From: an uncultured Acidobacteriota bacterium
GTDB taxonomy: Bacteria; Acidobacteriota; G020349885; CAZDZC01
Assembly (NCBI GenBank): GCA_964509835.1
Contig: CAZDZC010000005.1
Coordinates: 7,706-71,705 of the forward strand
Reading direction: 5' to 3'
Length of the DNA stretch: 64,000 bases
A program made the position numbers. Position 1 is the stretch's first letter, and every line of letters begins with the position of its first letter. This document shows positions 30,001 to 33,000 of this stretch, piece after piece.

Positions 30001-33000
30001 CAAACCCTCGTATATGATCGAAATGAAACCCTTCTGCCGGGTGAATCGGTTAATAAATTCCTTGTTTTTTCTCCCGTTTCAGAAAACAGAACAAAATTCC
30101 TGGCCGTTGACCTTTCCTGGCTTTACATAGGACAGGAAAACCTGCATTTGCAGTTTCCATACAGAATCATTTACAAAAAAAAATAAAAAAGGTAATTAAT
30201 TCCGGTTATTCGTCCAGCACTTCAAACTGATCTTTGCTGGCACCGCAAAGCGGACATACCCAGTCATCTGGGAGATTTTCAAAAGGCGTTCCCTCTTCAA
30301 TATCACTATCCGGATCACCGGCTGCAGGGTCGTAAATATAACCGCAAACTATACATTCCCATTTTTCCATATCAAACTCCTTAATTTAAAATTAATATCA
30401 AATAATTCGCAGTCTGAATTTAAAATAAACAGGCTGTATTGTCAATAGTCTTTTTAGGACAATGTTTTATGCTATAATGCTGTACTGGGCTCTTTTATTA
30501 ATTTGTATAAGGAGGATCCCTTCAAGATGACTAGAATCGAACTTATAAAAAACCTATCTCAAAAAAATGATTCTAAGATCGTATTTGTGGTTATTGATGG
30601 GCTTGGAGGTATCAGAACTCCGGAAAGGAATAAAACTGAACTTGAAACAGCCGATACTCCCAACCTGGACTGTATTGCAAAGCGATCTGCGTGCGGAATG
30701 ATAATTCCGGTATCGCTAGGGATAACTCCGGGAAGCGGCCCCGCTCATTTTGCGCTTTTCGGGTATGATCCTCTATCGGATATCTGTGATATCGGAAGAG
30801 GGGTGCTTGAGGTGCTTGGACTTGGAATTGATATAAGAAAAGGAGAAGTTGCCGCCAGAGGAAATTTTGCAACAATTGACAGAAGTGGTTTAATTTCAGA
30901 CCGTCGCGCCGGAAGAATTACATCGGAAGAATGTCAGAGAATATGCAGAAAAATAAATGGGGAGAAATTAATTATTGATGGAACCACAGTAGAAATCCAC
31001 GCCGGTAAAGAGCACCGTTTTGCAATTGTCCTCAGGGGTTCCGGATTAAATTCCGATATTATGGATACTGATCCTCAATCTGTTGGAGTTCTACCGCTTG
31101 ATCCGATGCCTGTGTCGCCCGAAGCCGTCACTACGGTAAATGTTTTAAAATCAGCTATTTCAAAAATTAATCACATAATTTCCAACGAGCCTAAAGCCAA
31201 TTGCGTACTTCTTAGAGGTTTTTCTTCGCTTCCTGATATTCCTTCTTTTCCCGAGATTTACAAACTGAATCCTGCGGCAATTGCAGGTTATCCGTTATAC
31301 AGGGGAGTAGCCAAAGCTGTGGGGATGCGTGTTTGGGAAACCGGCCCTTCTCTGGATGACGAACTTGAGTCACTGAAGTCTGCATTTTCTTCGTATGACT
31401 TTTTCTTCTTCCATGTGAAGAAAAGTGACTCCTTCGGAGAGGACGGCAATTTTCAGGGAAAGGTTGCAGTTCTTGAAGATGCTGACAATATAATTGGAGA
31501 GATCGCTTCAATGGATCCTGATGTTCTGATAGTAACCGGAGACCATTCAACTCCGGCTGATATGGCAGCACATTCATGGCACCCCGTGCCTTTTATGATA
31601 AAGTCTAAGCATTGCTGTCCTGATGGAGTAGAGCATTTCAGCGAAACGGAATGCGTGAAAGGAAGTCTGGGAATATTCGAGGCAAAATATATTATGCAGC
31701 TTGCGATGGCTAACGCGGGGAAACTCTTAAAATTCGGAGCTTAAAAAGAATTGACAGAAAAGATTAAAGCCATAGGGCTGATATCAGGAGGACTGGACAG
31801 CATTCTTGCTGCAACCGTCATCTATAATCTTGGAATAGAGGTTATTGGGCTGACATTTGACATAGGAAGTTACTCTCCGAACTTTAAAAGAAGCAATACA
31901 AAAAGATTTTCAGAATCTCTTCCCTTTGCAGTAAATGTTATCGGACCCTCGCAAAACTATCTTGATATGATTGTTAATCCCGAACACGGTTACGGTAAAG
32001 CGGTTAATCCGTGTATAGACTGCAAAATATACATGCTTAAGGAAGCCCGAAGAAAAATGTTGGAAGTCCGAGCTTCTTTTGTATTCACCGGAGAGGTTCT
32101 GGGTCAACGCCCGATGTCACAAAACAGGCAATCACTTAATGTTATTGAATCATGCTCGGGCCTAGAGGGTTATCTTCTCAGACCTCTCAGCGCGAAATTG
32201 CTTCCGGAGATTTTTGCCGAAAAAAATGGACAGATTGACAGAGAACGGCTTTACGATTTCAATGGTAGATCAAGAAAAAGACAGATAGAACTGGCATCTG
32301 ATTTACGCATTTCCGGTTTCCAGCAGCCCGCAGGAGGTTGTTTCCTTACAGATAAATCATTTGGAAAGAAGTTTAATGATTTACTGAATCGCAGGAAAAA
32401 AAAGGAAATATCATTGGAAGAAATTCGGGCTCTTCAGGTAGGAAGGCATCTGAGAATTTCCGAAGATATAAAAGCAATTGTCGGAAGGAACGAAAGCGAG
32501 AATGATTTTCTTGAGAATCACCGAAAAAACAATATTTTAATCAGAACAGCCGATTATCCCGGCGCATCTGTTGTTGTCGAAGGACAGCCTGATGAAAATA
32601 CACTGATATTTCTGGCATCCGTAGCAGCCGGATATAGTGATGCAAAGGGAGAACCCATTGTTAGAGCAGTTGTTTTGAAAAATGACAAAGAAATAATTTT
32701 GTCTGTTTCCCCAGCATTAAGCGAAGATATTGATAAATATATGATTCTTTAGAGAGTTAAATTTTCCTCCAATGATTAGTTTTAAATGTAAAACTGAAAA
32801 AAATTTTCTGTAAAACGATATTAGATAACAATGAATTATTATAGCGATATGAAATGAGCAGAAATCCGACAACCTTGCTTATTTTAATTATAATTTTGAT
32901 GACAGTGTCAGGATGTGGAGCAGGAAAAAAGATTGCCAAACCTGACAGTGTTTTTTTCCAGCAAGGAATCGCTTCCTGGTATGGGGATAAGTTTCATGGC

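Follow-up and report, generated by a model that had tools for sequence, protein, structure and literature searches.

A canonical, stand-alone rubredoxin gene hidden by a length cutoff in a contig of an uncultured Acidobacteriota bacterium

Introduction

Does an intergenic interval that a length cutoff leaves blank hold a real gene and, if so, what might the product do for its host? The question is raised by a 64,000-nucleotide stretch of contig CAZDZC010000005.1 from an uncultured Acidobacteriota bacterium (assembly GCA_964509835.1; "the window" below is this whole 64-kb stretch of DNA), in which positions 30187..30502 (316 bp) are without any open reading frame (ORF) of 60 amino acids (aa) or more. 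A preliminary description had placed a 54-codon rubredoxin gene here, on the minus strand, had attributed its absence from the ORF track to a 60-aa cutoff, and had taken it to point to an anaerobic or microaerophilic lifestyle. Rubredoxins are tiny iron-containing electron carriers that count among the best-characterised small metalloproteins: four cysteines on two CxxCG knuckles bind one iron in a tetrahedral Fe(SCys)4 site, and the cycling of this iron between Fe3+ and Fe2+ makes the protein a small soluble one-electron carrier. We report that the interval almost certainly carries a genuine rubredoxin gene, of the canonical single-domain, 54-residue type of Clostridium, Pyrococcus and Desulfovibrio, and we weigh the roles that its product may play.

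A complete rubredoxin in a short reading frame

The proposed ORF was recovered at exactly the coordinates first given, from ATG to TAA (Table 1). A longer reading is ruled out by an in-frame TAA five codons 5' of the ATG, as read from the sequence, and since no ORF of 60 aa or more lies anywhere across the interval, it is indeed the cutoff that hides the gene. The word "unannotated", used in the preliminary description, holds for this mechanical ORF track and not elsewhere: the exact protein is already public in a 122-kb NCBI contig and in the Logan assemblies of two sequencing runs, and is gene-called there. The rubredoxin of the window is in this sense an already known, ordinary stand-alone gene.

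Two curated hidden Markov models (HMMs) recognise the translation over their full length, with expectation values (E) spanning 1e-25 to 1e-30. Pfam PF00301 (Rubredoxin) matches at 87.3 bits (E 6.9e-25, cutoff 23) over model positions 1-47 of 47, and the NCBIfam equivalog NF045768 "rubredoxin" (RubredRD) at 102.2 bits against a cutoff of 90, over positions 1-54 of 54. The best-scoring solved rubredoxins of the PDB align without gaps over the full length (E 7e-25 to 1e-20), with about 65-75% identity over the full length for the best matches in the alignments printed. Weaker matches, namely the rubrerythrin rubredoxin-like domain (PF21349), the flavorubredoxin NorV and zinc ribbons, sit under the PF00301 match, and all but PF21349 fall below their cutoffs.

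All the motifs that had been claimed for the protein (CxxCG, CPxCG, conserved aromatics, DP and W) were found in the translation. Beside the two metal-binding knuckles (Table 1) it carries the aromatic residues W4, Y11, Y13, F30, W37 and F49 and the pair D19-P20; the conserved aromatic core and the acidic surface residues that mark a rubredoxin are both present. When the protein was aligned with 53 database (metagenomic) homologues, the invariant columns were C6, C9, Y11, Y13, D14, G18, D19, P20, F30, D36, W37, C39, P40, C42, G43, K46 and F49, every one of them kept in the window protein; the knuckle glycine G10 and Ala44 were nearly invariant. An AlphaFold2 model built on the homologue alignment reached a mean predicted local distance difference test (pLDDT) score of 95.2 and superposes on the solved rubredoxins of Clostridium pasteurianum, Pyrococcus furiosus and Desulfovibrio gigas with template modelling (TM) scores of 0.93-0.97 and root-mean-square deviations (rmsd) of 0.5-1.2 A. 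The predicted structure thereby shows the rubredoxin fold, a short three-stranded sheet with two knuckles.

Two related families were considered and rejected. The match to NorV (NF003954) scores 49.7 bits against a cutoff of 711 and covers only the last 52 positions of that model, and stop codons bound the ORF at 54 aa. The PF21349 match (36.3 bits) consists of two short stretches, the better of which spans residues 32-50 at the second knuckle; PF00301 covers the region with a much stronger match, no rubrerythrin domain is present, and the spacer between the cysteine pairs is of the long canonical type (29 residues). In rubrerythrin-type domains this spacing is short, about 12 residues (PMC6033852).

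Table 1. Features of the rubredoxin locus, in positions of the window
Feature	Position	Strand	Remarks
Rubredoxin coding sequence	30206..30370	-	ATG start, 54 codons and TAA stop; ORF listing, HMM and PDB matches, model, dN/dS
First metal-binding knuckle, C6-I-V-C9-G10	30341..30355	-	Cys codons 30355..30353 and 30346..30344
Second metal-binding knuckle, C39-P40-L-C42-G43	30242..30256	-	Cys codons 30256..30254 and 30247..30245
Shine-Dalgarno sequence AAGGAG	30377..30382	-	6 nt before the ATG
Promoter-like TTGACA-17-TAAATT	30417..30445	-	-35 at 30445..30440, -10 at 30422..30417; 10/12 matches in the consensus scan
TGCTATAAT, likely extended -10 of divergent apgM	30470..30478	+	reverse complement of ATTATAGCA; conserved in L084
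Spacer separating the rubredoxin stop from that of the convergent 209-aa gene	30187..30205		19 nt; without canonical intrinsic terminator

Conservation of the gene

A syntenic orthologue with 80% protein identity was found in assembly GCA_054039415.1 (the locus is referred to as L084). Its gene order is that of the window: amidase, unknown secreted protein, rubredoxin, apgM, a ThiI-like/NFACT-R gene, RlpA, DUF4388 and further genes including XerD, Dus and SurA, the neighbouring proteins being 50-75% identical between the two loci. Of the 33 base differences between the two rubredoxin genes, 23 fall on third codon positions, and the rates of nonsynonymous (dN) and synonymous (dS) change are 0.10 and 1.57, with a dN/dS ratio of 0.065. 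Judged from these substitutions, the gene is under purifying selection, maintained rather than a chance ORF. The rubredoxin frame is the only one open in L084; two alternative ORFs that overlap the gene in the window (40 aa at 30196..30318, minus strand, and 33 aa at 30234..30335, plus strand) were rejected, neither being kept open there. The gene can also be taken as free of frameshifts, because Logan contigs assembled independently from two runs reproduce the DNA of the window at 100% identity, over 2085 and 1342 bp, across the rubredoxin gene.

The central claim of the preliminary description, a real and canonical rubredoxin gene, is therefore borne out by the two curated HMMs, the solved structures, the predicted fold and the signature of purifying selection. 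An RNA element instead of, or besides, the ORF was rejected: no Rfam family matched at its gathering score across the whole window, none matched at E <= 0.1 within 30150-30540, and the check for RNA elements found no tRNA.

Expression signals

The strong Shine-Dalgarno (SD) sequence that had been described, AAGGAG followed by six nucleotides and the ATG, is present as stated, with TTTGAT as the spacer, and AAGGAG recurs at the corresponding place in L084, a few nucleotides before the ATG. Further upstream, the hexamer blocks AAGACTATTGACAA and TTATTTTAAATT are kept in L084 within intergenic DNA that has otherwise diverged. Because these blocks contain the TTGACA-17-TAAATT element and are conserved, we take the element as the putative sigma-70-type promoter of the rubredoxin gene itself. 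A transcript that starts from it would have a leader of some 40 nt, with the strong SD in it. No conserved operator of the PerR, Fur or Rex type is proposed in this leader, because the stretch between the -10 and the SD has diverged in L084. The TGCTATAAT element on the opposite strand is probably the extended -10 of apgM; it lies outside the rubredoxin gene and within the intergenic region that the two genes share.

At the other end, the 3' region folds with a z-score of -2.7; the fold takes in coding sequence of the convergent neighbour, and no hairpin followed by a T-run is part of it. The run of T that follows the rubredoxin stop corresponds, on the complementary strand, to the terminal Lys codons of that neighbour.

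A lone gene between unrelated neighbours

The rubredoxin gene is monocistronic, since its 3' neighbour is convergent, with the stops 19 nt apart, and its 5' neighbour divergent. These flanking genes are an unknown gene (29557..30186, plus strand) and the phosphoglycerate mutase gene apgM (30503..31744, plus strand). L084, from the only other known member of the lineage, likewise keeps the rubredoxin gene on its own in this position, between unrelated genes.

The convergent gene has a 209-aa product, which begins with a signal-peptide-like segment and matches no Pfam family. Its counterpart in L084, 50% identical, sits in the same place, convergent to the rubredoxin gene; L084 carries an extra 87-aa gene upstream of this counterpart, which the window does not have. 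The apgM product is a cofactor-independent phosphoglycerate mutase of the ApgM type (PF10143). Its true start is probably ATG 30527 rather than the mechanically called TTG 30503: alignments with all homologues begin no earlier than residue 9-14, and the first codons contain an AAGGAGG.

Is the rubredoxin one of several genes hidden in this way? The preliminary description had argued that the track misses real small genes and that other gaps deserved a scan. When 24 intergenic gaps were searched for SD-preceded ORFs of 20-89 aa, the rubredoxin was the only small intergenic ORF whose SD was at least 5 nt long. Relaxing the SD to 4 nt added one weak candidate, a 36-aa ORF with a GTG start at 45811..45921, which we judged unconvincing. 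The argument thus holds for the rubredoxin and for no further convincing case: the 60-aa cutoff hid one genuine gene in the window, and apparently only one. Three gaps of 370-487 bp (45793..46279, 54793..55173 and 5785..6154) contain no convincing ORF; none of them has an Rfam match at gathering score, and 45793..46279 has none at E <= 0.1. The last of the three lies upstream of the gene of a 102-aa RRM-type RNA-binding protein (5476..5784, minus strand) and may be a long leader.

Which electron transfer does the rubredoxin serve?

The role that we favour, with modest rather than strong confidence, is that of a one-electron donor to enzymes that reduce peroxide, superoxide or O2/NO and whose genes lie elsewhere in the genome. 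Electrons would pass from NAD(P)H through a NAD(P)H:rubredoxin oxidoreductase (NROR) to the rubredoxin as the middle link, and from there to rubrerythrin, superoxide reductase (SOR) or a flavodiiron protein (FDP), with the removal of H2O2, superoxide, O2 or NO; the host would be an oxygen-sensitive or microaerophilic bacterium, with the partner genes lying beyond the window. A three-component chain of NROR, rubredoxin and flavodiiron protein is known (PMC6033852). This detoxification role is preferred because close homologues elsewhere adjoin rubrerythrin or rubredoxin reductase genes. One of them, 73% identical, is followed after 15 nt by a rubrerythrin gene; another, 74% identical and from a Candidatus Acetothermia metagenome-assembled genome (MAG), overlaps a downstream reductase gene with Pyr_redox_2 and Rubredoxin_C domains. 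A third homologue (75%) is located between the stress genes Usp and DJ-1/PfpI.

Several observations have to be set against this interpretation. Pfam scans of all of the approximately 57 long ORFs detected no gene for rubrerythrin, superoxide reductase, flavodiiron protein, Pyr_redox-type reductase, alkane hydroxylase or hydrogenase in the 64-kb window, so that the partners expected for a chain from NROR over rubredoxin to rubrerythrin, SOR or FDP are not found within it. The neighbours are housekeeping genes, and because of this the specific pathway can be read only from homologues elsewhere, two other close ones of which are orphan genes as well. Among distant apgM loci (80 from genomes and 80 from metagenomes, around homologues of 48-54% identity) none of the 160 has a rubredoxin in its flanks. 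A functional link between rubredoxin and apgM was rejected for this reason, their adjacency being specific to the lineage. Finally, neither a terminator scan nor folding revealed a canonical intrinsic terminator 3' of the rubredoxin gene.

The main alternative, though a less probable one, is that this genuine rubredoxin belongs to core anaerobic metabolism, as acceptor for a 2-oxoacid:ferredoxin oxidoreductase, as donor to a reductase, or in the maturation of metalloenzymes such as hydrogenase. The Acetothermia homologue directly follows two genes for subunits of a 2-oxoacid oxidoreductase (POR), and the housekeeping surroundings, the seemingly constitutive sigma-70 promoter and the lack of a conserved operator-like block in the leader would suit such a function, as would the archaeal-type gluconeogenic/glycolytic genes of the window (apgM and a class V fructose-1,6-bisphosphate aldolase/phosphatase). 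Yet the same Acetothermia locus also includes the rubredoxin reductase and, nearby, a rubrerythrin; the 73%-identical homologue is paired directly with rubrerythrin; and no enzyme of the kinds that this alternative calls for is encoded in the 64 kb. It appears improbable, beyond this, that the protein serves a lineage-specific acceptor or role in place of the standard rubrerythrin, SOR or FDP chain.

More remote still is the case of an aerobe's rubredoxin, which would supply a membrane oxygenase, for instance an alkane hydroxylase of the AlkB type, with electrons from a rubredoxin reductase and would say nothing about anaerobiosis. Rubredoxins of aerobes do match, rubredoxin 2 of Pseudomonas aeruginosa (2v3b_B) at E 1.4e-17 and 53% identity and RubB of Mycobacterium tuberculosis (7a9a_A) at 45% identity, but they are the more distant ones: in the Foldseek search every top match, at 60-72% identity, is the rubredoxin of a known anaerobe, and the named metagenomic relatives come from WOR-3, Thermotoga, Acetothermia, Chloroflexota and Avacidaminococcus. 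Moreover, the equivalog cutoff of NF045768 is exceeded, and neither alkB nor a rubredoxin reductase nor a second rubredoxin domain occurs in the window. Rubredoxins of the alkane-hydroxylase type (AlkG/RubA) have genes linked to those for alkB and rubredoxin reductase and are often two-domain or paired proteins; this type was rejected on the same grounds, the window protein being a single 54-aa domain. That the ORF arose by chance, is a pseudogene in decay or stems from misassembly might be suggested by its short length of 54 codons and the missing canonical terminator, but the HMM E-values, the intact ligand and core residues, the low dN/dS towards the syntenic orthologue, the SD and promoter conserved in L084 and the identical DNA of independent assemblies leave it a negligible probability, and as far as sequence evidence goes this idea is already refuted.

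Lifestyle and lineage of the host

An anaerobic or microaerophilic lifestyle, as the preliminary description had it, is plausible insofar as the best named matches come from anaerobes, but it is unproven, rubredoxins being found in aerobes too. The named matches are to Pyrococcus, Clostridium, Desulfovibrio and Thermotoga, all of them anaerobes, and to MAGs of WOR-3, Acetothermia and Avacidaminococcus. Pfam scans of the long ORFs brought up nothing else diagnostic of oxygen physiology in the 64 kb. The gene can be regarded as a weak marker of oxygen-sensitive or microaerophilic life in a poorly sampled lineage.

The source lineage itself appears deep and sparsely sampled, as far as comparisons of its proteins suggest. 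The contig of L084 also encodes an RpoD, 84% identical to that of the window (48918..50585, minus strand); beyond this single relative, no match among 5.8 billion proteins exceeds 62%, and the named ones are Acidobacteriota at 56-57%. For ApgM, searches of 185,579 species genomes and of the metagenomes of the Joint Genome Institute (JGI) gave no match above 54%. Its closest relatives, at 52-54%, are from MAGs of UBP1, Krumholzibacteriota and Latescibacterota, which disagrees with the Acidobacteriota affinity of RpoD.

In itself the find is of little importance, because in all respects that could be tested this copy is a canonical member of a thoroughly characterised protein family. All that is mildly unusual is the fixed position of this orphan gene and the fact that its lineage is obscure and poorly sampled.

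Other genes of the window

Several further genes of the window deserve mention. A class V fructose-1,6-bisphosphatase is encoded at 22427..23527 on the minus strand (PF01950, 516 bits); this enzyme and the ApgM-type mutase are types typical of archaea and deep-branching bacteria. A conserved triad occupies 11081..15830 on the plus strand in one apparent operon: PrkA, with AAA and PrkA kinase domains, a DUF444 (YeaH-like) protein and a SpoVR-like protein. Directly after apgM, and beside it in L084 too, a 333-aa protein (31751..32752, plus strand) joins an N-terminal ThiI-like PP-loop region to a C-terminal NFACT-R_2 RNA-binding domain. Three consecutive genes for SurA/PPIC-type peptidyl-prolyl isomerases (38640..41339, minus strand) lie directly downstream of mfd (41397..44783). 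Among signalling proteins we found a response-regulator receiver fused to a PilZ domain (26431..27126, plus strand) and a DUF4388 (PatA_N) protein (33601..34716, plus strand), of which L084 has two tandem paralogues against one in the window.

Comparison with known rubredoxin systems

The Fe(Cys)4 knuckle chemistry of the window protein is shared by flavorubredoxin NorV and by the C-terminal domain of rubrerythrin, but in these it is fused to enzymes, a flavodiiron core in NorV and a diiron four-helix bundle in rubrerythrin, whereas here it belongs to a free-standing protein of 54 aa. Closer in sequence are the rubredoxins of the rubredoxin-rubrerythrin and rubredoxin-NROR operons of uncultured anaerobes (L167/L168 and L171/L172), which are 73-74% identical and exemplify the partners that the window protein most likely serves; these are co-transcribed with their partner, whereas the rubredoxins of the window and of L084 stand alone.

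The rubredoxins of Pyrococcus furiosus and P. abyssi (1bq8, 1caa, 1yk5) and of Desulfovibrio gigas and D. vulgaris (1rdg, 7rxn) are 60-68% identical (E about 1e-22 to 1e-20) and have TM scores of 0.92-0.95. They measure 52-54 residues, with small differences in length at the ends, and we saw no functionally notable difference. The P. abyssi protein shares Ala44 as well, to go by the name of its A44S mutant entry (2pya).

The rubredoxin of Clostridium pasteurianum (4rxn, 5rxn, 1iro) has the same 54 aa and aligns without gaps from residue 1 to 54, with about 60% identity, a TM score of 0.96-0.97 and an rmsd of 0.6-0.7 A against the predicted model. The two proteins have in common the cysteines 6, 9, 39 and 42, the knuckle glycines G10 and G43 and the aromatic core of Y11, Y13, F30, W37 and F49. 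They differ at position 4, where the window protein has Trp, and at position 44, where it has Ala and the clostridial protein Val, to judge by how the V44A/G/L mutant structures among the Foldseek matches are named. Work on the V44A variant reportedly places rubredoxins with Ala at this position in a higher-potential class, at roughly 0 mV; by analogy, Ala44 predicts that the window rubredoxin would fall into this higher-potential class as well.

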